Part shown: positions 7,477 to 43,255 of the stretch, piece by piece
Numbering within the stretch: the stretch's first letter is position 1
Layout: each line of letters begins with the position of its first letter
Source: a phage
Assembly (NCBI GenBank): GCA_011939005.1
Contig: GCA_011939005.1_4858.1
Direction: 5' to 3' (one strand)
DNA: 64,000 nt
Position numbers and translations under genes: made by a program
The notes under the pieces: generated by a model
Databases searched by the model: none
The model's input: only the letters and a program-made list of their open reading frames with translations
What the model was told of the DNA's origin: nothing

Positions 7477-7897
7477 AGCGTTCAATAATCACTCTTACGA
7501 TATCTTCTACCGGAGGGTAATACCACAGAACCACGCTGTTTCGTCCCAAGTCTTTTGGAAACGTTTGACAGTACGCAATGTCGGTGCCGAAGCGCTCAGA
7601 GAGCTTTAAAACGTTCTCTGGGAATTGACAGCCTCCTCGCCAATCATGCGTATAGAGTACCTGCTGTAGTAACTTCACATTAGCATCGAAGAAGTACAGA
7701 TTTTCCACTGGCGCAATATGTGGTACCGGAATTGGCGTGTCTGTAAGTACGAACTCCAAACCACCACATTGTTCTGAACGCTCCGCTAGGAGTTTCAGAT
7801 GCCATGGCATTAGACCGTGGTCTTCCCAGACGATATTGTTGACCAGTAAACGATCAACGTATTCATCGTAATCAACCGTGAACAGTTTCTTCGCCAT
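7475..7897 (-). CDS. hypothetical protein
   Basis: Minus-strand ORF; ATG at 7897 has RBS gagg, whereas track start 7912 lacks one. No motif recognised. Confidence 0.5.
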   Translation of the reverse strand: MAKKLFTVDYDEYVDRLLVNNIVWEDHGLMPWHLKLLAERSEQCGGLEFVLTDTPIPVPHIAPVENLYFFDANVKLLQQVLYTHDWRGGCQFPENVLKLSERFGTDIAYCQTFPKDLGRNSVVLWYYPPVEDIVRVIIER

Positions 7898-8813
7898 CGG
7901 TAAACGCCTCATCTTTTACAGTAAGGGAACCGTTTACTTCGATTTCAGCGGCGGTCATGTCTGCTTCTTTAACGAATATACCGTCCGCGTTCAGGAAACC
8001 CTTACGGTCTTTGATTTCATCCCACGCCAGAGAGAAACACTGTTCCAGAGTCATATCGTACGCATTAGCCAGCGCATTGGCGTATTCGACCATCTGCGCG
8101 AAGTGACATTCGATCATTACCGCGTCGCTGTTCTCGAAGTGTTTATATTCGAGTTGCTTAGCTGAGTCGATGCCGGCTTGATCCCAGATGTAATCAACAG
8201 CTGCTGTGAGATGGAAACGCATTTTGTGGAACAAGTAATGACTGTTCCCGGCGTGTGGTTTCTTTGAACGTGCGTCGTTGACGTATGTGCTGATATCGGT
8301 TGAGTCAAACTTAATGAGTTCCATCAAGTTAACCAACACGACCAGAGCATCACCGATACCGTCCATGATGTAACGACGTTTGTTTTTACTGATACCGGTT
8401 GCCGCTTCACCGTCTTCTTCGTAGAGTTTGGTGGCTTGGCTATACCAGACGCCGTTATCCAGAATACCACGCGCTTTAGACCAACCCATAACGTTAGTAA
8501 TACATTGTGGGATGGTGTACAAAGGTACGTAACGCGGACGATCAACCGTACCACGATACTCGACACCTTCCAACGTCCACGGCATTTCGAAATCATTTAT
8601 TTCCAAACGATGGTCGCCTGTGAAGACTTTACCTTCGACGTAAGTGTGACCGGTTTCACTGTTCACGCACAGGGTGTACAGTTTCTCAAAGGACCACGGT
8701 TTAACAAACTGACGTTGGCAGAATCCAGCCAGAAGCTCATTAATCTGTGCCAGGTACTGGTTAGGTTCAACAATAACGTTATACGGAATCTGGATAGTGA
8801 AACGATCGCCCAT
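7872..8813 (-). CDS. hypothetical protein; C-terminal half possibly MazG-like all-alpha NTP pyrophosphatase
   Basis: 313-aa ORF, ATG with RBS aaggag; MazG assignment rests only on an acidic helical segment (GIGDALVVLVNLMEL) and is weak. Confidence 0.55.
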   Translation of the reverse strand: MGDRFTIQIPYNVIVEPNQYLAQINELLAGFCQRQFVKPWSFEKLYTLCVNSETGHTYVEGKVFTGDHRLEINDFEMPWTLEGVEYRGTVDRPRYVPLYTIPQCITNVMGWSKARGILDNGVWYSQATKLYEEDGEAATGISKNKRRYIMDGIGDALVVLVNLMELIKFDSTDISTYVNDARSKKPHAGNSHYLFHKMRFHLTAAVDYIWDQAGIDSAKQLEYKHFENSDAVMIECHFAQMVEYANALANAYDMTLEQCFSLAWDEIKDRKGFLNADGIFVKEADMTAAEIEVNGSLTVKDEAFTDGEETVHG

Positions 8814-11133: not shown

Positions 11134-12171
11134 TTAGATAGCGACAGGCGCAGATATTTTTTCATGGGACTGATACCCGACGATTTCGAAATCTTCGAAC
11201 TTATAATCGAAGATAGAATCCGGTTTACGCTTGATGACCAGTTTCGGTAAAGGTAAAGGTTCGCGCGTCAGCTGCAATTTAGCCTGTTCCAGATGGTTGG
11301 AGTACAGATGTACGTCACCACCACTCCAAACGAAATCGCCTGGAACCATGTTAACTTGCTGAGCTACCATGTGTACGAGTAATGCGTAAGACGCGATGTT
11401 GAACGGTGTTCCCAGGAAGAAGTCTTGGGAACGTGCATACAGCTGACATGAAAGAATGCGGCGAGGTATTTCAAGTGCGTCCATCTCAACGTGGAACACT
11501 GCGTCGTCTGCAACAGCTTCATTACTAAAGCGGGAATCGTTAAATTGATCTGGAAGGTTCTTTTCAAACCAATCAAGACGCTCGTCGATAGACAGCTCAC
11601 GAGTGTAGAACTGAAAGAACGCATGACACGGAGCTAACGCCATTTGATCCAACTCACCCACATTCCATGCGCTGACAATAATACGGCGACTGTCAGGATC
11701 GTTACGCAGTTGGTCAATCACCTTAGAGATTTGGTCGTGTAGTTTCAGAAGTACACGCGCATCGAACATTTGTGAACCGTCGTCCGCGTCGCCATAATCC
11801 ACGTATCCTGCATCTTGCAGTTTCTCGAGTAAAGCTGCATTTTTCTTAGGCACCAGTTTCACATCTTTCCAACGTCTCCACTGTTCCCCATACAGGGGGC
11901 CAAGGTTCCCATTTTCATCTTGCCACTCCCGCCAAATGGTAACGCCGTTATCTTCCAGATATTTGGTGTTGGTATCGCCACTAAGGAACCACAGCAGTTC
12001 GTGAATAATAGAACGCAGGTGGAGTTTTTTAGTCGTGACTAGTGGGAAACCTTTGCGCAAATCAAAACGCATTTGGCGACCAAAGACGGAGAGCGTCCCT
12101 GTTCCAGTACGGTCGCCTTTAACATGCCCTTCATCCAGAATATTCTGCATCGTTTCAAGGTATTGCTTCAT
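11134..12171 (-). CDS. thyA: thymidylate synthase (ThyA family) with two insertions
   Basis: Near-complete ThyA signature: [94 protein letters not shown]-terminus APVAI; 345 aa versus about 264 in E. coli. Confidence 0.95.
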
Positions 12172-13031
12172 TAGATACTATCCCTCTTTAAGCTTTCAAA
12201 TAAGTAAAGTAGATCATCATTCATCACCACATTCACACCGCCATCTGTGTAGGCTGCGGTTATTTCAGGTACACGTTCGAACAGGATACGATTCCAGCGC
12301 ACTGAGTCACGAACATATTTGTCCAGCAGTTCGTTTAACGTAGTTGCGAGTGCAGCATTGATTGTCGGCAACTCGTCGCGTTTAAACGGCCGGTGGCAAT
12401 AGGGCGCAAGGTGCGTAGCGACACAACTGTCCAGGACAGTCTGGAACATCAGACAGATGGCTGGCCCAGCCATCTGTCTAGAACCAGGCAATTTATCGCC
12501 AGTAAAATCATCAGACGCGGGAACAAACAACCCGATGCCGTTCATTTCACCTTTCGTGTTGATTAGCACACGATGTCCGTTGTATATTACACGGCCGAAT
12601 TCCAGGCCGCAGATACGCGCCAACATTCGGTATTGTCGCGCCAAACTATGCAGCTCGGTAACGTAGCTGTGGGGCTCGTGCTCATCTTGCAATATGAGTC
12701 CAACCACTTCGGTGGCAACAACAAAAAGGTTATGAAGACGGAACTCTTTGGTGTTTCCCGTGGTGCGGTCTTTTATAGCTGCATCCAGTGGAATAACGAA
12801 ATCTCCCACGTTCGTGTGCTTGCCGAAGTGCAACAGACCAACGAACGCCCAAAGAGAGCGACCCATGGCCGCCGCCACTTTCAAGTTGTCCATCTTCTGC
12901 ACACCTTCAGCGACGTCGCCTAATGTGCGATAGAACTTGGCTAGCTGCTGCTCGCGTGTCCCGTATTGGTAAATCTTCGCTTGCCGGTACCAATCATCAA
13001 CCGCCTGAGTCTGCTGAATAATACTAAGCAT
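12171..13031 (-). CDS. hypothetical protein, translationally coupled to thyA
   Basis: Stop overlaps thyA start; ATG at 13031 has RBS aggagg (track start 13097 would overlap upstream gene by 74 nt). Possible MazG-like helix pattern, weak. Confidence 0.55.
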
Positions 13032-13443
13032 ACTCTTCCTCCTGATACGCGTAGCAGATTGCAAAGTTAAGCTGGCCGGTTGCGCGAGAAACGACAACGG
13101 CGATAGTCTGGTCTTCTACACCCGACATCGGTGTGCCCTGGTTAACCATTTGACCTGCGGCTTTACTTACCGGACCCAGCAAACGCCAGCTGTACAGACG
13201 GCTACGTAACGCGGCGTTTTGTAAGAAAGCGGAGCCGCAATCATAGTCGATGTTAAACGCCGCAAACATTGGACCACAGTTTGCCATCGTGCCGTTTAAC
13301 GGCAGCTCGCTCGTTACCACAATCTTCACAGGCTTGTCTTTGAGACGTTGTGCTAACGCTTCCCAGTTAGCGTTATTAGTGCCAGCGACGATGGTGTTGT
13401 TCAGAAGTAAGCCAACGCCTTTTTCAAACGCGATATTGTTCAT
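13024..13443 (-). CDS. hypothetical protein
   Basis: 139-aa ORF, ATG start; no motif recognised. Confidence 0.5.
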   Translation of the reverse strand: MNNIAFEKGVGLLLNNTIVAGTNNANWEALAQRLKDKPVKIVVTSELPLNGTMANCGPMFAAFNIDYDCGSAFLQNAALRSRLYSWRLLGPVSKAAGQMVNQGTPMSGVEDQTIAVVVSRATGQLNFAICYAYQEEEYA

Positions 13444-18664: not shown

Positions 18665-19340
18665 ACAGCGCAGTGTCCTTTACGTCAGTACCGACGTATT
18701 GAGCAAGAAAACGGGTGGACTCCTTAAAGGGGTTCACCTTATCTCTTTTTATTTGCGCGATTGCTTCTTCCGTTAATTCGCTGGTCAGCATACTCGGTCG
18801 GGTAATCGTAAAATCCGGAATCGGTTTCTGGAAATGGCTCGCGTGTTGTTCTATCCACGGATACCAATCGTACATTATCCAACCATCCCATGCAGAAGCA
18901 AGTCGTCCTGGTGTAAGATCGCTGTGAGGAATAACAACGACGTCTACTTGCACTTCGTTGTAGTAGTAGCGCAGTTCTTCCAAAAACGCATGACGTTCTT
19001 CATCATCGAGATCAGCGTATGGCCACAGGTTAAACGTTAAGACAGGTCGCTCGATAGGAGCGTGCATCTGTATCGTCATTAACATTGCCTGTACTTCGTT
19101 CTTTAGCGTAAGCAACATTTCTGTTGGCTGCGCGTTCTGCAACGCGCGTTTATCACGCTCCGCGAACTTTTTATTCCAGTCCTGAATTCCTACCACTTCG
19201 GCCCACGCATCCGTGAACCGCATCCGATACACTTCTAAATCAAGCTTCTCTAATACATCAGGCTGCAACACTTTCGCCCAACCAATTCGTGTATCGAAGA
19301 TTGTGTCGATATCGACTAAGAAACGGCGTCCTAATCTCAT
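18612..19340 (-). CDS. hypothetical protein
   Basis: 242-aa ORF, ATG start, ATGA-coupled to upstream gene. Confidence 0.55.
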   Translation of the reverse strand: MRLGRRFLVDIDTIFDTRIGWAKVLQPDVLEKLDLEVYRMRFTDAWAEVVGIQDWNKKFAERDKRALQNAQPTEMLLTLKNEVQAMLMTIQMHAPIERPVLTFNLWPYADLDDEERHAFLEELRYYYNEVQVDVVVIPHSDLTPGRLASAWDGWIMYDWYPWIEQHASHFQKPIPDFTITRPSMLTSELTEEAIAQIKRDKVNPFKESTRFLAQYVGTDVKDTALFSLRRHQQDDDSQTQTP

Positions 19341-20005
19341 TCCGGGCGTCCTAAGTTGTTACCGATGTGCATTGCTTTAAAGTACGAAGACCATGTACGC
19401 GGCGCTTTTGAACTGGTACGCTCAGCCCCTTCCAGGTTGATGCGACCTTTACCGGTTTGCCGTAGCGATTGATAGAACGCACGTTGTAACGTATCGTTAC
19501 CACCACGCGCCCACAGGAACTCCTGGAGCGTTGAGTCGTGTCCATCCGAGTACATGATGTACGCTTCTGGAAACGAAACACCCGAAGCTTTGGAAGGCCC
19601 TACTACCTGACCTGAGAGTTTATCGCGGACTTTATCGTTCTTCGCCACCGCCATTTTCTTCTCATGCATCTGCGTCTGGCGACGTGCAGGCAGGCGGAAG
19701 ACTAAATGGGGGTAACGGGTACGCTGTAGGATACCGGTTTTCGGTTCCGTGAGCCACAGGCGCTGACACAAGCTCAGTCCCATCGCTTCGCAAATTTTAA
19801 TATTGCGCATATGGTCAATTTTGACCTTGCCACCAGTTGGGTTGTAAACAGGCAACCCTTCGCGCAGACGATTGAACTCTTCGTCAGACATTCGCGAGAA
19901 AGCGCGCTTGGCAGCTTCCGCGTTAATCCCGGTCGGGTCAACTAAGTTCAGTAACTGTAAAGCATAAGCTTCTGCTTTTTTTCGCCGTGCCGGGTCTAAT
20001 CTCAT
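19337..20005 (-). CDS. hypothetical protein
   Basis: 222-aa ORF, ATG start, coupled on both sides. Confidence 0.55.
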   Translation of the reverse strand: MRLDPARRKKAEAYALQLLNLVDPTGINAEAAKRAFSRMSDEEFNRLREGLPVYNPTGGKVKIDHMRNIKICEAMGLSLCQRLWLTEPKTGILQRTRYPHLVFRLPARRQTQMHEKKMAVAKNDKVRDKLSGQVVGPSKASGVSFPEAYIMYSDGHDSTLQEFLWARGGNDTLQRAFYQSLRQTGKGRINLEGAERTSSKAPRTWSSYFKAMHIGNNLGRPE

Positions 20006-20277
20006 TTTTTCATCCTCTCGCGGAGCACTGGAAGAACCACACGTTCCAGGTCTTCAATCCAGTACGGGATATCTTCATTGTGTTCAGGCACACCGACCGC
20101 ATCAACCTTCGGTTTATCATTAATCAGGTTGCCGTAATGGGCATTTACCTGATGACTAAATTCAGACAGTGCATGTCGCGGTGCTGAGAACTCGTTATGG
20201 AACGCGGTGCTAAGTTCCTGGCTAATACCAGCGAGACCCAGACACAGACGCTCTACAATATCTTTCTGATAACGCAT
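20002..20277 (-). CDS. hypothetical protein
   Basis: 91-aa ORF, ATG start. Confidence 0.45.
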   Translation of the reverse strand: MRYQKDIVERLCLGLAGISQELSTAFHNEFSAPRHALSEFSHQVNAHYGNLINDKPKVDAVGVPEHNEDIPYWIEDLERVVLPVLRERMKK

Positions 20278-20322
20278 CGCTAATCCTCAGGGGGGAAAAC
20301 AGGCGGGTTGCCCCGCCCATGC

Positions 20323-21816
20323 TTATTTCTTCTTAGTCAAGAACTTAGGTTCCAGACCATCCACGGCCATCGCCAGTAATGACATTGCTGTTAAGCAACG
20401 CTTACCACCTTTGACTTCCTGATCCTTGAACATCCAGTATTCCACTGTATTGTCCAGAATTTCATTCCAGTCCCACTTTTCGTCGATAACTTTATAAAGC
20501 TCCGCCGGTGAGAGATGGTACTTCATTTCCAGTCGGTGGTAGTTATTCTGCATGTACGCTAATGCGGCGGTGATTTCCAACGCACGGCGCAAACGCGGGT
20601 TGCTGTCACACATGTCGCGAATCGTGGTACGCATGAAAGATGTACCAGGTAGCAAATCGAGGGTATAGTTAGCACCACTACGTTTGTAGCCCCATTCATC
20701 TTTCAGTGTGTCGCTCAGGTAATGCCACAGAGAGAGGTGATAAAGCAGACCCATCTCCTGCGAGAAGACCATTTTGAACTTAACGCCTGTGTGACCACCC
20801 TTCGCACGGTACTGCGTGAAAACAATTTCTTTCAGGTCGTTCACCGAAGCATTCATTGCTTTCGAACGCGCAGTCGGGTATTTCTCTTCGTTTACACCGG
20901 TCTTCGCGTTGTAAGTCTGATCCTGCTTCAACTCACCAGACTTGGTTGCAACCAGCAGGGAGTTAGTTAAGAACGACAACTGACGGCGCGGGATACCCGC
21001 AAACTTCAGATCATCGCCTGCATCGTCCAACAGTTTACCGTTCGCCTTCGGTCCACCACGGCCACCTGCCGCCATTGCTTTACCCGCATCGTCGGCCAAC
21101 TGAGCAACGAAGCCCATATAGAAACCACCACGCGCAAACGCAGACGGCCAACGGCTCATCATATTCGATTTCTGCAGGGCATCGTGGGCGTTCAGGATGT
21201 TCTGTTCAGAATCACCGACTTCCGATTTGGCATGTTTCTCTTCCAGAGAAGAGGTGTGCCATTCGGACAGGGAGTCAATCGAGTACAACCACGGGTCGAG
21301 AATCTTTTTCGCAGAGCGACGGATTGGGTCAGGGAATGGTGTTTCGCGTGCCTTACCAGCCATATACTCTTTGAAACGTTTTTCGACTTCGTCACGGATA
21401 TAAGCAGAGTAATACTCCTCACCCGCCATGATATCCGAGCCAACCATGTTGTAACGACCTTCGTGGATCAGGTCCAGCACGCCGCCCGTTGGTGATACTT
21501 CTAATCCGTTTGCTTTCGCTGCGGAAATGTACCCCGTTTCCAGACGACTTAATGCTGCCGTAACTTCGGTATCGTATTTCGATCCCCAGGCTGCATTATA
21601 ACGTTGCAGAATCATGAAAATGCAGAAGTCTAATAAGGTAGACTTAAAGGTGTTCCCACGACCTGCGAAGCCCATGATGTGGGCAAAACCACCGTTGAGG
21701 TAGTACAAACCATCTTCCCCGCGCTCGTAGTTACCGAGAGCGTGGTCCATGATGGTATATACGTTAAAACGAGGGCGAATTACTTCACCCATGACTTGTT
21801 TAGCTGGACCTGCCAT
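20323..21816 (-). CDS. putative RecA/UvsX-like recombinase-type ATPase
   Basis: 497 aa; motif GGFAHIMGFAGRGNTFKST resembles the UvsX P-loop region (...AGPSKSFKS as I recall it) and a downstream IDSL resembles the RecA/UvsX Walker B (IDSLGNL). Motif-level only. Confidence 0.5.
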   Translation of the reverse strand: MAGPAKQVMGEVIRPRFNVYTIMDHALGNYERGEDGLYYLNGGFAHIMGFAGRGNTFKSTLLDFCIFMILQRYNAAWGSKYDTEVTAALSRLETGYISAAKANGLEVSPTGGVLDLIHEGRYNMVGSDIMAGEEYYSAYIRDEVEKRFKEYMAGKARETPFPDPIRRSAKKILDPWLYSIDSLSEWHTSSLEEKHAKSEVGDSEQNILNAHDALQKSNMMSRWPSAFARGGFYMGFVAQLADDAGKAMAAGGRGGPKANGKLLDDAGDDLKFAGIPRRQLSFLTNSLLVATKSGELKQDQTYNAKTGVNEEKYPTARSKAMNASVNDLKEIVFTQYRAKGGHTGVKFKMVFSQEMGLLYHLSLWHYLSDTLKDEWGYKRSGANYTLDLLPGTSFMRTTIRDMCDSNPRLRRALEITAALAYMQNNYHRLEMKYHLSPAELYKVIDEKWDWNEILDNTVEYWMFKDQEVKGGKRCLTAMSLLAMAVDGLEPKFLTKKK

Positions 21817-21831
21817 TTAGCGCTCCGTCAA

Positions 21832-22131
21832 TTAGCGTTTTTTCAGTGGGAGTAACAGACGACGTTTATGCCAAACTTCGAAATGCATTTCTGCCCACTC
21901 GGTGACTTGACTGTCATCTTTAGGGTTGATATTAGAAATGCCCTTGAAGCGGTTACGGTTACGTTCGTCGATTTCGATTTCCAGAACGCGCTGACCATCA
22001 GCACGAGTGGTCACGTTCAGGATTTTACCAACCACGATCGGACTACCATCGGTATTCTTCTTCGTCGGGGTGGTGTAAATCTCAGGTTCGATACGAGAGG
22101 TTAAAGCGCGAGTCAGTAATTTGATTCTCAT
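21832..22131 (-). CDS. hypothetical protein
   Basis: 99-aa ORF, ATG start, immediately upstream of the recombinase-like gene. Confidence 0.45.
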   Translation of the reverse strand: MRIKLLTRALTSRIEPEIYTTPTKKNTDGSPIVVGKILNVTTRADGQRVLEIEIDERNRNRFKGISNINPKDDSQVTEWAEMHFEVWHKRRLLLPLKKR

Positions 22132-27447: not shown

Positions 27448-28962
27448 TTACACCTCTTCTTCTCGCAGTATGCGACGGTTTGCGTAATACGCACACCACA
27501 ACCCATGATACTCTTTACCGATATAGATTAAGAAGTAACGGATGTAGTATTTTTCAGGACGACACACCGCGATGTAATAACGGCCTTCCGGTTCTTTAAT
27601 ACGGTTGATTTCCGTACGCGATGGAATATCGATACCGCGAGTCAAAATAACCGAGACAGGTCGTTTACCCATCGGAAAGTCGATCTTTAACGTTATTGAC
27701 TTATCGACGCTACGGTAGTATTCCTTGACAGGTTTACCTTTGTCGTCGAATAGCAAGTCGGTAATGTCGTTTAAGACATAACCCTTTTCCTGATGCAGAA
27801 CATCTCTCAACGTTGTAGCGAGTTCGTCACGAATATCCAGCGCACGGTACGACAATAAGGGCGGGCGAAGCATTCTGGAGATGGCCAGGTCTTCAAAGAA
27901 CCAGACATTAGAATCCTCCCCACTGAAATGCATCTTGTCTGCCGGCAATCCGTCGCCTGCCACATCAACGAATTTCTTACGCTTAACGAACTCATTGTTA
28001 ACAACGCCAATTGGATCATACTGCCGCATCTTCGGTGTATCTTTCCATGCCAGGGCGGCGTGGTTGTTTACAATCGTGTAGATGTTATCCCACGGTTGTT
28101 TAGTGAACATTACGGAAAAGTGTGCATCGGGAATCATTTTCCCAATAAACACCAAGTCGTCCTTGTTCTTTGCATGGTTGCCACCAAACATGTAATAGAA
28201 AGTTTCATCTTTCACTTTTACAGTAGGATGGTCTTCGTTCACCAACGGATAGCAATATTTAACCGTACAAATCGGCGGATATGCCGCAAGGTTCATCCCA
28301 GCGGCGATGGGCTCGGGTTCCGCGGATGCAGGCAACTCATCCTTCGACCAGTACGGCTGATATGGAACACCGTCGTTGGTCGCGGTGATAGCTGAACCTT
28401 TTCTAGCCAATTCGTCCGCCCGGTCGTTACCGTAGTGGCCGGAGTGTCCTTTGATTTTGATAACCTTAACACCCCGTCCTTCTTTTTTCATCTGCTGTTT
28501 GATTTCCCAGATACGAACAATAAGTTCTTTGTTCGCCAGCGGAGTACCATCAGCACGAACCCAACCACGTTTATGCCAGCCGTCTATCCACTCGTTAAAA
28601 GTGTTTACAACGTAACTGGCATCCACGTAGATGATATAGTTCTTCGCACGGAATGGCGCATTCTCAAACAACGTGATGAAGGCGATTAACTCGCCCACAT
28701 CTGAGTAGAACTCTTTCGGAACGGGAATAACGGCGTCGACAAATTGAACGGTGTCCGGCAACTCCGGACACTTCACATCCTGCGGCACTTTTTTGTATCC
28801 AACAGTGGTAATCCGTTCTGAAACACCCGGATGGCTATAAGCCTGACTGTCTTCCAAATCTCCGTTGTTGAATAAATAACCATGAATACCAGCCCCCGAA
28901 CCTTTCGGGGACTCAGTATGACTACCATCGGTATAAATAACCGCTACGTCGACGTCTTTCAT
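27448..28962 (-). CDS. RNase HI-domain protein with long C-terminal extension of unknown function
   Basis: N-terminal ~190 aa: VIYTDGS, ELIAFI, YVDASYV, WHKRGW, KGHSGHYGNDRADELARKG (RNase HI signature); total 504 aa. Confidence 0.8.
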   Translation of the reverse strand: MKDVDVAVIYTDGSHTESPKGSGAGIHGYLFNNGDLEDSQAYSHPGVSERITTVGYKKVPQDVKCPELPDTVQFVDAVIPVPKEFYSDVGELIAFITLFENAPFRAKNYIIYVDASYVVNTFNEWIDGWHKRGWVRADGTPLANKELIVRIWEIKQQMKKEGRGVKVIKIKGHSGHYGNDRADELARKGSAITATNDGVPYQPYWSKDELPASAEPEPIAAGMNLAAYPPICTVKYCYPLVNEDHPTVKVKDETFYYMFGGNHAKNKDDLVFIGKMIPDAHFSVMFTKQPWDNIYTIVNNHAALAWKDTPKMRQYDPIGVVNNEFVKRKKFVDVAGDGLPADKMHFSGEDSNVWFFEDLAISRMLRPPLLSYRALDIRDELATTLRDVLHQEKGYVLNDITDLLFDDKGKPVKEYYRSVDKSITLKIDFPMGKRPVSVILTRGIDIPSRTEINRIKEPEGRYYIAVCRPEKYYIRYFLIYIGKEYHGLWCAYYANRRILREEEV

Positions 28963-29681
28963 TATTCTCCTCGCAACTGCGGTGGAATGTATTCACCTGT
29001 GCACATTTCGCGGTGAGCTTCTAACATGCGTTCGAAGCCGTACGTACGCGCGACCAGGGCCAAATGATAGATGCGTGCCGTAGAATACGCTTCCTTCGCA
29101 GCATCAAAGTTAGCGTTATGCTCGTACGCTTCTTTGCCGCGGGTCCAATGGTGCGCTTCTGCGTGCCAGTTCGGTTCCAGGCCAAACGCATATGCAATAC
29201 GTTCTGCAGTCCGGTCAGAGTCCAATATAGAAAACTTGCGGTACTTGCCCGGCGGGATATCGCACTGCGCGAATGCGTTCATCAGAATTGGAGCATCGAA
29301 ATCGGGACCACGCATGGTGATAACCATTTTCACGTTGCCCAGATCATCCAACCATTTTTTGGCCGCCCACAGCGCTTCTGGCAGTGGAGTGGTCCCAGAA
29401 AACGCTTCAATACGTGCTTTCTCGCTCGGTGCGTATTCGGGGTCGCCTTTACCTTCCCAATAACCGACCGTTTGTGGATCGATGTAGAAGATTTCTTTTG
29501 CTTTTGCATCATTGGGGTCGATTTTGTGGTAACATGAACCGATCATTTTCATTGTCGGAACATCGAATGCCACGTTTGCCAACGTTAAGATGTAGGCATC
29601 TGGACGTAAAGCCAGGGTCTCTAAGTCCGTCCCAACAACAACGGTGGGCGTTAAAACAGGCAGAATTTTAGGATATGTCAT
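28962..29681 (-). CDS. putative DnaQ-like 3'-5' exonuclease (T4 DexA-like)
   Basis: 239 aa; Exo I-like motif VVGTDLETLAL and further blocks (DFDAPILMNAF, AHHW) aligning by eye to T4 exonuclease A; stop overlaps RNase H start by 1 nt. Confidence 0.6.
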   Translation of the reverse strand: MTYPKILPVLTPTVVVGTDLETLALRPDAYILTLANVAFDVPTMKMIGSCYHKIDPNDAKAKEIFYIDPQTVGYWEGKGDPEYAPSEKARIEAFSGTTPLPEALWAAKKWLDDLGNVKMVITMRGPDFDAPILMNAFAQCDIPPGKYRKFSILDSDRTAERIAYAFGLEPNWHAEAHHWTRGKEAYEHNANFDAAKEAYSTARIYHLALVARTYGFERMLEAHREMCTGEYIPPQLRGE

Positions 29682-39156: not shown

Positions 39157-39348
39157 TCATGTCCGTTCTCCTATATCTCGCCACTCACAACGCGTGTCGA
39201 ACAGACGTTCTTTAAGAGCAGCAGCTAAATAAACGACCGCAGCGATAACCACTACGGTTGCACAAAAGGAGAGGTACAGTACCATCACAACAAACTGAAG
39301 GAACTGAAAACCCCACCAAGCCCATAAGCGCCAACCTTTATGATGCAT
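39157..39348 (-). CDS. small membrane protein
   Basis: 63 aa, Trp-rich N-terminus and one hydrophobic helix (VVMVLYLSFCATVVVIAAVVYLAAAL); start overlaps the stop of the Rad50-like gene. Confidence 0.45.
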   Translation of the reverse strand: MHHKGWRLWAWWGFQFLQFVVMVLYLSFCATVVVIAAVVYLAAALKERLFDTRCEWRDIGERT

Positions 39349-41848
39349 ATTTGATTATTACCCCTTCGTTATACACCGGTGGAAGCGTTACACCTTCTGG
39401 TTCCACGACACAGTAGGTGGCTTCGTTAAGTTTAGAATGAACTTCCGCTTCATGCGAAACGACCAGCAATTGAGAAAACTCTCCCGACAACGCCAACGAT
39501 TTAATGAAGTTAACTAATCGGTTTTTGTGTTCTTCATCCATGCCTTCAGATGGTTCATCCAATAACAAAGGATAATTTTGTAAACCAAGTGCTTTATACG
39601 CCGTTAAACGAAACATCATGTTGAAAATGATACGCTGTGCTTTTGAACCTTTCTTCACGTCAGGCACCAGTTCTTCATGGTCTTTTAATCGCACTGGGAA
39701 TGTATAATCCAAATCCCCGTCGGTTAGATCGCATGGAATAACCTGCATCGGATATGCCCACACCATTTCGATATACCGATTCATTAAATCCATGATGCGG
39801 GTAATCGCAGCATAAAAGTAACGACGCAATAATCCTTTTTCGGGTGAGACGGCATTGATAATCAATCTGGCATGATGGTGTTCTTTGAGCAACTCAGCTT
39901 GCTCTTTTTCCAGTTCCGCTAAACGTGCAATAGCCCCTTCCATTTGACGAAACCGTTCACGAGCTGAAGTATACGCATCGAGCTTCGCTTCGCGTCGGTT
40001 TAACAACTCGCGAACCACGACGTTGTTAACGGAGATGTTCATTTCCGATACCAGATGTTCGTAGCCCTTTTGGAAACGTTCGATTGCTTCTTTGGTTTGT
40101 TGCAGTTGGGTGGTTTCGCGTTCCAGCTCATTGGCTTGTCTGCGGTATTCTATCAGTCGTCGGTTAGCCCCGTCCAGTTGTGAACGGATATGTTCAATTT
40201 TCTGGCTCAGCGCACCATCAACGTTACCTACTGCAGCAACAGCCTCTTGCCATTCCCGTTCCGCTGTTGCAAGCTTCGCCGATTGACGCAGATACATCAT
40301 GGCCGAATCTAACTCTTCAGTAAAGGCACGTGCAATGGCACCGTAACGATCCCGCGCCGTGGTGAAGATATCCAGCTCCTGCAGTTTACGGAAAAACAAA
40401 CCGATAACGGGATGATTGGAATACGACATGACGATTTCGCGAATCGTACGTAAGCTACGGACGTCCTCTTCAATCTCTTTGCGGTCACGCAAAAGACTAT
40501 CCATTTCGTCTTTCAGCTGTTTTTTCCAACCTTCATTATCGTTGATGGCCTTTTCAATTTCAGGTAACGACTTACGAATCCCAGGACGGAAACGGTGGTT
40601 ACACTGTGGACAATCAACTTCTGCAGTTTCTAAGAAGTGTTGACGGTCGTGGTATAAACCGTGTAGCACATTCTCACAACGTTGCAACTTTTCAGATAGA
40701 CCCGCAGAGGTTAAATCCATACCCTGTAAACGCTTCTCTAACGCTCCCAGGCGCTCTGTTGTCTTTAACTGGTCCAGATGCATGGACAACGGTAAATTCC
40801 AGTTACAGGCGTCGTTTAACGCGTTCTGAATGCTATCCACGTCGATGCGGGTACCTTCAAACAGAGCCGGGAACATCCAGTTCTGTTGGAATGTTGCCAG
40901 TTCCTGTTTTAAGCTGTCGATTGTTTGTTTTAGACCGGTATGGTTGCGCATCAGATACGCTTGACGCGACTCCTCATCCAGTAGCTGTGACAACTCTTTA
41001 TTGTACATGTTGCATTCAGTTTCAGCAGAGGCAGCTTGCTCGCGCCAGGCAACCACACGACTTTGAAACTCGTTAATCAGTTCGTCAGAAGGCAGAACGC
41101 CATAACGTTCCATAATGAGTTTTACAGCCGGTTGCAACGAAGCAATGCGTTTCCGGATACTATCAACCGAAACGGCGTTATCTAAACCGGGTCTCGCTTC
41201 AATGGTGCGGTTTAGTTCCTGAAGCTCAACGTCCAGTTCTTTCAAACGAACTTCCAAACGTGCACGATCTTCTTCATCGTCAACGACGCGCATTTTTGCT
41301 TCGCCGATTTTTCGTCCGGTGTGCTCAATGGCCCCACTTAAACTGGAAGCGAGTTTACGCAGACGACGATAACAACCAACAACGTACGTCAGATCAGATT
41401 CTGACATTAACGTAAACCATTTACGACGAACTTCAGTGGTGGCGTCTGTTAATAAGGTCTCACCATTAATTAACTCTTTGATTTCTTTGGTGATTCCGGT
41501 TAATTGCTCCACCATGGAGTTGTAAACTTTAGCGTTTACTGAATCTACGATGGAAACACCTTTAGTGATGTTGAAGATACTACAAGACAAAGAAGACCCA
41601 CGTCGCAGGACTTCAAACTTAAGACGGTCGTCCCCAACTAACGCGTAGTTAGTGTAGGAACCACCTTCACGGAATTCTGATTTTGCTGGAGCTAAGGGGA
41701 GAAAAACAGATAGGAGGCTTGTTTTACCGCAGCCGTTGCCACCGAGGATGATGGTAACGGTTGACTTAAGGGTGAAATCAAACGTTTCGATTTCATGTAA
41801 CCCCATGCCGGTAAATCCTTTCAAAATGATACGTTCGACCTTGAGCAT
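39338..41848 (-). CDS. Rad50/SbcC-family ABC-type ATPase with coiled coil and zinc hook
   Basis: 836 aa; Walker A ILGGNGCGKTS; long Glu/Leu/Arg-rich central region; CxxC hook DCPQC; C-terminal Walker B LLLDEPSEGMD and H-loop VVSHEAE. Confidence 0.8.
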   Translation of the reverse strand: MLKVERIILKGFTGMGLHEIETFDFTLKSTVTIILGGNGCGKTSLLSVFLPLAPAKSEFREGGSYTNYALVGDDRLKFEVLRRGSSLSCSIFNITKGVSIVDSVNAKVYNSMVEQLTGITKEIKELINGETLLTDATTEVRRKWFTLMSESDLTYVVGCYRRLRKLASSLSGAIEHTGRKIGEAKMRVVDDEEDRARLEVRLKELDVELQELNRTIEARPGLDNAVSVDSIRKRIASLQPAVKLIMERYGVLPSDELINEFQSRVVAWREQAASAETECNMYNKELSQLLDEESRQAYLMRNHTGLKQTIDSLKQELATFQQNWMFPALFEGTRIDVDSIQNALNDACNWNLPLSMHLDQLKTTERLGALEKRLQGMDLTSAGLSEKLQRCENVLHGLYHDRQHFLETAEVDCPQCNHRFRPGIRKSLPEIEKAINDNEGWKKQLKDEMDSLLRDRKEIEEDVRSLRTIREIVMSYSNHPVIGLFFRKLQELDIFTTARDRYGAIARAFTEELDSAMMYLRQSAKLATAEREWQEAVAAVGNVDGALSQKIEHIRSQLDGANRRLIEYRRQANELERETTQLQQTKEAIERFQKGYEHLVSEMNISVNNVVVRELLNRREAKLDAYTSARERFRQMEGAIARLAELEKEQAELLKEHHHARLIINAVSPEKGLLRRYFYAAITRIMDLMNRYIEMVWAYPMQVIPCDLTDGDLDYTFPVRLKDHEELVPDVKKGSKAQRIIFNMMFRLTAYKALGLQNYPLLLDEPSEGMDEEHKNRLVNFIKSLALSGEFSQLLVVSHEAEVHSKLNEATYCVVEPEGVTLPPVYNEGVIIKYAS

Positions 41849-41944: not shown

Positions 41945-42571
41945 TTACTGCGGAATAAACTTACGGTGTCCGAGCGATTCCCAAAAACTGTCGGTGCGCT
42001 CTTTGGTTAATTCATACCACGCACGCCCGGCATCAGAATCGACAACCTTTAACGTTTCAGTAAGCAGGAATTTGAACAGTTCAGCGCTACGACCGGGTGC
42101 CACGCCGTCGAGATATATCGGGATTAAATAACCGGTTTTGATTTCTTCGTACGGTTGCGATTGGTGCTGGCCAACAACCCAGGCATCAGCAGCGCTACCG
42201 ACCAATGTGGTGTTTACAGTTAACTCATCAGAAATCCAGTTAACTGTATCAGCCATTATTGAATCGCCATTGACGTAGAAGAAAACTAAACGTTTAGGTT
42301 GCTCCACCGAACCAGCCAAATCTAATGCAGTAGTTCCGGTGAAGATCGTATTATTGGGATTACGTTCTGCAATAGGTAGAGCAAACCACGCTTCGAGCTG
42401 CCCCCAGCTACGCGGCAGTGCTTCTTTAAACCACTTCACCAATCGCGGGTATTCCAGAAACCCTTCTACCTCTTCTTCCATCAGATTGATACGCAGTTTG
42501 GTATCCTGACGATTCGCTTTCTGACACGTCACCATGTCGTCGATGAAACGAATCAGGGTAATCTCGTTCAT
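41945..42571 (-). CDS. hypothetical protein
   Basis: 208-aa ORF, ATG with RBS gaagga; no metallophosphatase motifs (not an obvious Mre11/SbcD). Confidence 0.55.
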   Translation of the reverse strand: MNEITLIRFIDDMVTCQKANRQDTKLRINLMEEEVEGFLEYPRLVKWFKEALPRSWGQLEAWFALPIAERNPNNTIFTGTTALDLAGSVEQPKRLVFFYVNGDSIMADTVNWISDELTVNTTLVGSAADAWVVGQHQSQPYEEIKTGYLIPIYLDGVAPGRSAELFKFLLTETLKVVDSDAGRAWYELTKERTDSFWESLGHRKFIPQ

Positions 42572-42625: not shown

Positions 42626-43126
42626 TTACAGCCCCATATGCATAAGGGAAATGATTGGGACCTTACGGCCACGAATCATTGCATACGGTTCGTACATTTG
42701 TGCGTTAGTTTCGAATAACTCACAGGCCGGAATACGGTCACCGGTAGAGAGTTGTAAGACCTCAATTTGGTCGCCCCAGAAGTTATTCACTAATACGTGG
42801 TCGACAGTGTTGTCTTCACGACCTTCAGGGGTTTTGCAATAAGTGGCTGCATCGTACCAACCTTTGCGGTATACTTCATATCCCGCATGAAGCATCCGGT
42901 AGTACGGACGTAGCTGTGGGGCATTCAACGCAGCATCTAACCATTCGCTGTGGATGCTGTTAATCAGTACGGTTGCTTCTGCTGGCCAGTCGGTGCGATT
43001 GAGGGTTAACTCGCCTAACAACTTCAACTTCCAACCAGTAGAAAGAATAGCACGGGTACGTTCAGGGTTAACGTTCATCTGAGTAAAGAAAGAAGAACGG
43101 GTATCGTCGAGAATGTTCATGTTCAT
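42626..43126 (-). CDS. hypothetical protein
   Basis: Track start 43192 is GTG; ATG at 43126 has RBS aagga. Confidence 0.5.
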   Translation of the reverse strand: MNMNILDDTRSSFFTQMNVNPERTRAILSTGWKLKLLGELTLNRTDWPAEATVLINSIHSEWLDAALNAPQLRPYYRMLHAGYEVYRKGWYDAATYCKTPEGREDNTVDHVLVNNFWGDQIEVLQLSTGDRIPACELFETNAQMYEPYAMIRGRKVPIISLMHMGL

Positions 43127-43255
43127 TTGCTTAATCCTTACGGGTAATAGTCGATTAAAAAGGACCCTGCGGCTAAGTGTTGGGGAGATCACCGCAGGGC
43201 CAAAGTGAGATGGGTCGTCATCTCACGTTATAACATCTGTCTGAAAACTTTTCGG

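Follow-up and report, generated by a model that had tools for sequence, protein, structure and literature searches.

The phage DNA considered here, a stretch of 64,000 nucleotides (nt) referred to below as the window (GenBank assembly GCA_011939005.1, contig GCA_011939005.1_4858.1), contains a gene for a protein of 497 amino acids (aa), and the question raised by this locus is whether a protein of that size, in which a P-loop and an IDSL motif are some 130 residues apart, can be a recombinase of the RecA/UvsX type. A sequence-only reading had proposed that it is such an ATPase, enlarged by large insertions, and that a 99-aa protein encoded immediately upstream might be its mediator or partner. 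Both open reading frames (ORFs) were found where that reading had placed them; they are on the minus strand, with a gap of 15 nt between them, and a GGAG ribosome-binding site is located upstream of the ATG of the longer one. The segment GFAGRGNTFKST begins with residue 49 and IDSL with residue 180, which amounts to a spacing of 131 residues. On the evidence given below, the product of the gene is very probably a recombinase of the UvsX/RecA type and a member of the phiKZ gp152/Nlp1 family, from a nucleus-forming jumbo phage similar to SPN3US.

The close relatives of the protein are readily identified. The window region, which comes from an SPN3US-like jumbo phage of Salmonella, is at the nucleotide level ~98% identical to the SPN3US-like jumbo phages of Salmonella/Escherichia (genus Seoulvirus). 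With SPN3US ACQ60_gp050 (gp216), which has already been named a diverged T4 UvsX homolog (PMC5694885), the identity of the protein is 100%, and with gp238 of the Erwinia phage Asesino it is 88%. Compared to phiKZ gp152/Nlp1, the identity is 30% (E=2e-54) with query residues 13–497 aligned, and by these alignments the protein is homologous over its full length to phiKZ gp152 and the orthologs of the latter. In the PHROGs database the 497-aa protein falls into phrog_97, 'UvsX-like recombinase', with E=2.8e-55. Relatives were found by tblastn in 287 phage records, essentially all of them large phiKZ-like genomes, and many carry labels such as 'putative UvsX protein' or 'UvsX-like recombinase'. 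The order of genes is also shared, as the recombinase is followed by one or two small ORFs and then by a gene for a virion RNA polymerase (RNAP) beta fragment in SPN3US, phiKZ (gp152–gp149) and Asesino (gp238–gp240), and the RNAP beta fragment downstream and an RNase H-like gene nearby have phiKZ counterparts in gp149 and gp155, respectively. The protein is thus similar to phiKZ gp152/Nlp1, PhiPA3 gp175, Asesino gp238 and PCH45 gp72 of the Chimalliviridae in size class, end-to-end homology and downstream synteny, and the gene is a member of an already recognised UvsX/RecA-like (Nlp1) group. Members of the family are 404–526 aa long with a median of 481 aa, which means that 497 aa is a normal size in phiKZ-like phages and that the enlargement is the norm of the family.

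We now turn to the fold. The AlphaFold2 model is confident (mean pLDDT 90, pTM 0.91), and a Foldseek search against the PDB returned bacterial RecA for all of the top 50 matches, with E values down to 7e-12 and target-normalised TM-scores of 0.6–0.7. In the structural comparison, the highest Z score, 25.0 over 300 residues, was obtained for E. coli RecA (3CMU), followed by S. pneumoniae RecA (22.1, 297 of its 333 residues), RAD51C (19.2, 233 residues), a putative phage UvsX (9GBG; 19.0, 264 residues) and T4 UvsX (3IO5; 18.2, 240 residues), while DnaB (17.3, 231 residues) and KaiC (16.8, 197 residues) score lower. The protein thus has the core of the RecA fold, and its closest structural relatives are recombinases.

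At the level of sequence profiles, the family alignment used throughout consists of 83 homologs. Searched as a profile against the PDB sequences, it ranks T4 UvsX (3IO5) first with E=0.021, and the other 11 matches are all RadA; the 497-aa sequence on its own gave no match in the PDB. With hhalign, the family can be aligned to an 18-member UvsX alignment with E=7.9e-5 from Walker A to the YD[ST]E motif. The global mode yielded a meaningless 7-column alignment, and the order of the motifs discussed below was taken from an extended alignment at low stringency, which is unreliable beyond approximately residue 290. The best matches of both kinds, structural and profile, are without exception RecA-family recombinases. 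The proposal of a RecA/UvsX-type ATPase, which would have been refuted had a P-loop family other than recombinases given the best match, is therefore borne out.

The catalytic residues are also in place. The P-loop of the family reads GxGN[TS][FY]K[ST], with GRGNTFKST, GKGNTFKST and similar variants being the commonest, and has an aromatic residue, F or Y, at the position of the second glycine of RecA. This is likewise the case in UvsX (GPSKxFKS, with F64 invariant in the UvsX alignment), whereas RecA (GPESSGKT) and RadA lack the aromatic residue, and judged by this motif the P-loop is of the UvsX type (GxxxxFKS). Among the 83 homologs, D82, E84, D181, N206, K216, R337, K339 and G341 are invariant, and G52, N55, K58, P160, F161, S182, S184, G201, K261 and L263 are nearly so. 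Equivalent residues were assigned by motif anchoring, with RecA numbered with its initiator Met and using an E. coli RecA sequence verified to be identical to PDB 2rec_A. In this way, the Walker A lysine K58 corresponds to K66 of T4 UvsX and K73 of E. coli RecA, the catalytic glutamate E84 to E92 and E97, the Walker B aspartate D181 to D143 and D145, and D202 of the L1 region to D165 and D162. According to the alignments, the Walker A lysine, the catalytic glutamate and the Walker B aspartate are thus conserved and match their UvsX equivalents. The putative gamma-phosphate sensor Q239 is paired with H195 of UvsX and Q195 of RecA; this column has H, as UvsX, in 72 of the 83 homologs and Q, as RecA, in the other 11, the SPN3US clade departing here from the histidine typical of the phiKZ gp152 family. 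R337 and K339, which by the order of motifs lie in the corresponding strand, would be the equivalents of the basic pair that contacts ATP in trans (K246/R248 in UvsX and K249/K251 in RecA).

The candidate DNA-binding loops are less clear at the residue level. Segments similar to L1 and L2 occupy the right topological positions, but their sequences cannot be aligned to those of RecA. VGDSEQN resembles the EIGDSHM segment that opens loop L1 of RecA, and the two may be equivalent. The L2-like loop, which in the SPN3US clade is ~8 residues longer than in the rest of the phiKZ gp152 family, is predicted to be disordered, with pLDDT below 50 at residues 251–254 and 256–267.

Next, the extra length could be located. 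The protein is 106 residues longer than T4 UvsX (391 aa) and 144 residues longer than E. coli RecA, to which it is 13–15% identical. From K58 to D181 there are 123 residues, compared to 77 in T4 UvsX and 72 in E. coli RecA, and this spacing varies between 108 and 135 residues in the family (median 115). Relative to UvsX and RecA, respectively, the segment from the catalytic glutamate to Walker B is longer by 46 and 49 residues, that from the Q/H sensor to the trans-acting lysine by 47 and 44, and that from the latter to the C-terminus by 15 and 56. The segment from the N-terminus to the Walker A lysine is instead shorter, by 8 and 15 residues, although an insert of ~13 aa sits inside it. Secondary-structure order, motif anchors and hhalign gaps together place the probable insertions at the boundaries listed in Table 1. 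The large insertions suggested earlier can thus be assigned to specific segments and to a longer C-terminal domain, in which ~60 helical residues are extra compared to bacterial RecA. Rad51 paralogs and archaeal RadA align with the core alone (206–233 residues), and the 497-aa protein has a C-terminal domain of the RecA/UvsX type rather than their N-terminal helix-hairpin-helix domain.

Some relatives are longer still. Four distinct homologs of 635 aa from metagenomes/NCBI (P0023, P0024, P0026 and P0027) are 51–54% identical to the window protein and carry a conserved N-terminal module of ~140 aa directly before a Met that in the alignment takes the position of the usual start. An intein or another internal insertion was considered as the origin of these residues and rejected, since they form an N-terminal module. 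Neither Pfam nor PHROGs has a family for the module, and nothing in the window corresponds to it; it may represent a genuine fusion of domains or result from read-through of a gene located upstream.

A number of observations weigh against the assignment as a recombinase, one of which concerns the N-terminus. In RecA and UvsX, filaments assemble by means of an N-terminal alpha-helix that binds to the adjacent protomer. According to DSSP, the AlphaFold2 model has no helix ahead of residue 21. Furthermore, in the hhalign alignment query residue 3 falls opposite UvsX residue 24, and P15xxN18 opposite the invariant P36xxN39 of UvsX, such that the conserved PxxN is preceded by ~14 residues as compared to 35 in UvsX; in the family as a whole, a median of 13 residues precedes the R14 column. 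The FxxA motif of Rad51 is not evident in the protein either. The polymerisation helix of RecA and UvsX thus appears, from the model, to be absent, which means that canonical filament formation is not assured. In addition, the hhalign similarity to the UvsX profile, in local mode, is confident over residues 40–95 only, that is, ~55 residues. At E<=1 the protein has no match in Pfam, including PF00154 (RecA), and none in NCBIfam, including its RecA model, whereas canonical UvsX proteins carry precomputed PF00154 and PF21134 matches and T4 UvsX, used as a control, matches the NCBIfam RecA model TIGR02012 at 3e-15. No UvsY, DprA or SSB was recognised by Pfam among the 99-aa ORF and 16 other ORFs at 15.4–27.5 kb, so that the same-phage UvsY mediator of the T4 system has no counterpart among the ORFs examined; UvsY is reported to be restricted to T4-like jumbo phages, and no such partner is known for the SPN3US group (PMC7824862). 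Finally, neither in vitro biochemistry nor a solved structure was found for the gp152/Nlp1 family in the literature searched.

Because the polymerisation element appears to be missing, one alternative has to be retained, namely that the protein is a RecA-fold accessory factor, like the Rad51 paralogs, RadB or Sak4, which would help annealing or modulate a different recombinase, with no classical presynaptic filament of its own. We consider this improbable. RecA is the best structural match, with both the core and the C-terminal domain aligned; the Walker motifs, the catalytic glutamate and the putative trans-acting basic pair are conserved as invariant; and a disordered L2-like loop is present. 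Moreover, the PHROGs scan, which covered 23 ORFs and thus a minority of those in the window, gave no match to a recombinase family other than phrog_97, and the phenotype of the phiKZ deletion resembles that of T4 uvsX mutants (PMC12676376). The cytoplasmic foci formed by phiKZ RecA-sfGFP before import (PMC11087766) also suggest self-association. That the protein is instead a non-recombinase ATPase of the RecA superfamily, such as a DnaB-like helicase, a KaiC-like protein or a packaging/translocase ATPase, is highly improbable, since DnaB and KaiC share the fold but the recombinases are ahead by 2–8 Z units over more aligned residues, all sequence-profile matches are recombinases, the P-loop variant is UvsX-specific and a RecA-type C-terminal domain is present.

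A role as a recombinase is also consistent with what has been reported for the orthologs. The phiKZ protein gp152, called Nlp1 or 'UvsX/RecA homolog', routinely serves as a cargo for nuclear import (bioRxiv 10.1101/2024.03.27.586873; PMC11087766), PhiPA3 gp175 ('RecA') has served for proximity labelling within the phage nucleus (PMC10643120), Asesino gp238 ('UvsX') is found in the phage nucleus (PMC11724907), and the UvsX of PCH45 is nuclear and non-essential (bioRxiv 10.64898/2025.12.19.695335). When nlp1 is deleted in phiKZ, replication is slower and the plaques are small, the competitive index is 0.05 and the phage becomes sensitive to NucC, a CBASS nuclease (PMC12676376). Both the localisation and a phenotype in fitness and nuclease resistance have thus been demonstrated for orthologs.

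For the 497-aa protein itself, the analysis establishes the homology, the fold, the conservation of catalytic residues and the synteny, and from these we infer that it forms filaments, hydrolyses ATP and exchanges strands. The recombinase would be made in the cytoplasm and then imported into the phage nucleus. It would bind ATP via the UvsX-like P-loop (K58/S59), and the hydrolysis would take place with the help of E84 and D181, probably together with R337/K339 provided in trans by the neighbouring subunit. Single-stranded DNA (ssDNA) would be bound by the L1-like (~200–206) and the enlarged L2-like (241–276) loops, to be followed by homology search and strand exchange, and the outcome would be to support recombination-dependent replication and the repair of broken phage DNA.

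With the N-terminal helix apparently lost, two core insertions of ~46 residues, an enlarged L2 and ~60 extra C-terminal helical residues, one can speculate that the family forms a structurally distinct subclass of RecA, which might assemble filaments via a different interface and use the added surfaces for mediator-independent loading on ssDNA or for recognition by the nuclear import; this is a tentative idea to which we give less than even weight. The value of the assignment as a discovery is small, as a UvsX/RecA-like annotation already exists for SPN3US gp216 and the orthologs, these are in routine use as cargo for nuclear import, and the phiKZ deletion phenotype is published. Its practical value lies in annotation, because the curated RecA models of Pfam and NCBIfam miss the whole family and the SPN3US gene is called 'hypothetical protein' in RefSeq. 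The residual interest is structural and biochemical, namely how polymerisation occurs with the N-terminal helix apparently lacking, how ssDNA is loaded without UvsY and how the protein is recognised for nuclear import.

We have also considered the suggestion that the 99-aa protein might serve the recombinase as a dedicated mediator or partner, in functional analogy to UvsY. The two genes are on the same strand with a short gap and are probably co-transcribed, their adjacency is conserved in Asesino (gp237–gp238), and UvsY is lacking in phages of the SPN3US group (PMC7824862). However, the 99-aa ORF was found in 59 phage records, all from the SPN3US/Erwinia clade, as compared to 287 for the recombinase, and in a set of 1.8 billion cluster representatives 8 are related to the protein. 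It has no Pfam or NCBIfam match and no similarity to UvsY, DprA or SSB. In phiKZ no such ORF is found beside gp152, and the equivalent position is taken by a head protein on the opposite strand. As the 99-aa protein is limited to one clade and unlike known mediators, the suggestion is not supported, and we regard a dedicated mediator role as unlikely. The idea that the ~140-aa module of the longer homologs acts as a 'Rosetta stone' tying the 99-aa ORF to the recombinase was rejected as well, with a probability of 0.3% in hhalign and no blastp similarity; since the two are unrelated, the fusion provides no link to the recombinase.

The 99-aa and recombinase ORFs share the same reading frame, separated by a spacer with two in-frame stops (21817–21834, TAA TTG ACG GAG CGC TAA). 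The shared frame is probably coincidental, and the arrangement could yield an in-frame fusion. In the LR5359xx records (Salmonella phages SPFM1, 5–8, 10, 12, 14, 15 and 20), both genes appear in pieces matched in several frames and the deposited proteins span just 5–29% of the query, a pattern typical of frameshift sequencing errors and not of biology.

Table 1. Positions in the window of the recombinase gene, its predicted elements and the neighbouring features.
Feature	Position	Strand	Basis or remark
UvsX/RecA-like recombinase gene, 497 aa	20323..21816	minus	SPN3US gp216 / ACQ60_gp050 ortholog, phiKZ gp152/Nlp1 family
N-terminal arm, residues 1–20, predicted helix-free	21757..21816	minus	DSSP on model
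Extra hairpin, ~residues 22–36			secondary-structure order, extended hhalign gaps
Walker A / P-loop GRGNTFKS, residues 52–59 (K58, S59)	21640..21663	minus	aligned to UvsX GPSKSFKS; coordinates checked by translation
YDTE, residues 81–84	21565..21576	minus	aligned to UvsX YDSE; D82/E84 invariant, E84 = catalytic Glu equivalent
Predicted insertion 1a, residues 103–121	21454..21510	minus	loop + short helix between helix 89–102 and strand 122–126; model order, hhalign gap vs UvsX
Predicted insertion 1b, residues 153–175	21292..21360	minus	beta-hairpin (strands 156–163, 168–173) before Walker B strand, with conserved TPF; hhalign gap vs UvsX
Walker B strand WLYSIDSLSE, residues 176–185	21262..21291	minus	D181 invariant; extended hhalign alignment to UvsX FIDSLG
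L1-like segment VGDSEQN, residues 200–206	21199..21219	minus	G201 nearly invariant, N206 invariant; motif order
Q239, putative gamma-phosphate sensor position	21100..21102	minus	end of strand 232–240; extended hhalign pairs VAQL with INHT
L2-like enlarged loop, residues 241–276 (36 residues)	20989..21096	minus	model disorder; between strand 5 and next helix, as RecA L2
Predicted insertion 2, residues 296–327	20836..20931	minus	between strands 286–295 and 328–338; secondary-structure order
R337-A-K339, invariant basic pair	20800..20808	minus	conservation + motif order
C-terminal domain, residues 372–497	20326..20703	minus	RecA-like small beta/alpha domain + ~60 extra helical residues (437–485)
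99-aa ORF	21832..22131	minus	phrog_10750 (no assigned function)
Terminator-like hairpin GGCGGGG-CAA-CCCGCC then TGTTTT	20302..20317	minus	5 nt past recombinase stop (20323–20325), before next gene's start (20277)
91-aa ORF + virion RNAP beta-subunit fragment	19337..20277	minus	phrog_6181 and phrog_3233; RNAP beta fragment at 19337–20005
RNase H-like 'ribonuclease'	27448–28962	minus	phrog_3265; counterpart of phiKZ gp155/Nlp2
Exonuclease	28962–29681	minus	phrog_255
SbcC/Rad50-like protein	39338–41848	minus	phrog_77
ORF just upstream of SbcC-like gene	41945–42571		phrog_9964, unassigned family
ORF just upstream of SbcC-like gene	42626–43192		phrog_8115, unassigned family
MazG-like pyrophosphohydrolase	7872–8813	minus	phrog_7855
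Thymidylate synthase	11134–12171
MazG-like pyrophosphohydrolase	12171–13097	minus	phrog_10269

Concerning the remaining surroundings of the gene, the 91-aa ORF downstream shows no significant similarity to phiKZ gp150 or gp151. The hairpin between it and the recombinase has a predicted folding energy of −17.3 kcal/mol, which is not unusual (z = −0.88). It is kept in SPN3US and Asesino, in the latter despite diverged flanking bases, and this suggests a role as an intrinsic terminator or RNA-stability element that would end the transcript of the 99-aa ORF and the recombinase.

The RNase H-like, exonuclease and SbcC/Rad50-like genes are all situated within 20 kb of the recombinase, and together with the thymidylate synthase they fit a phage toolkit for replication and recombination. 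No SbcD/Mre11-like partner was recognised among the scanned ORFs, which cover the upstream flank of the SbcC-like gene. Finally, the two MazG-like pyrophosphohydrolases are paralogs that match each other, and they flank the block that holds the thymidylate synthase gene.

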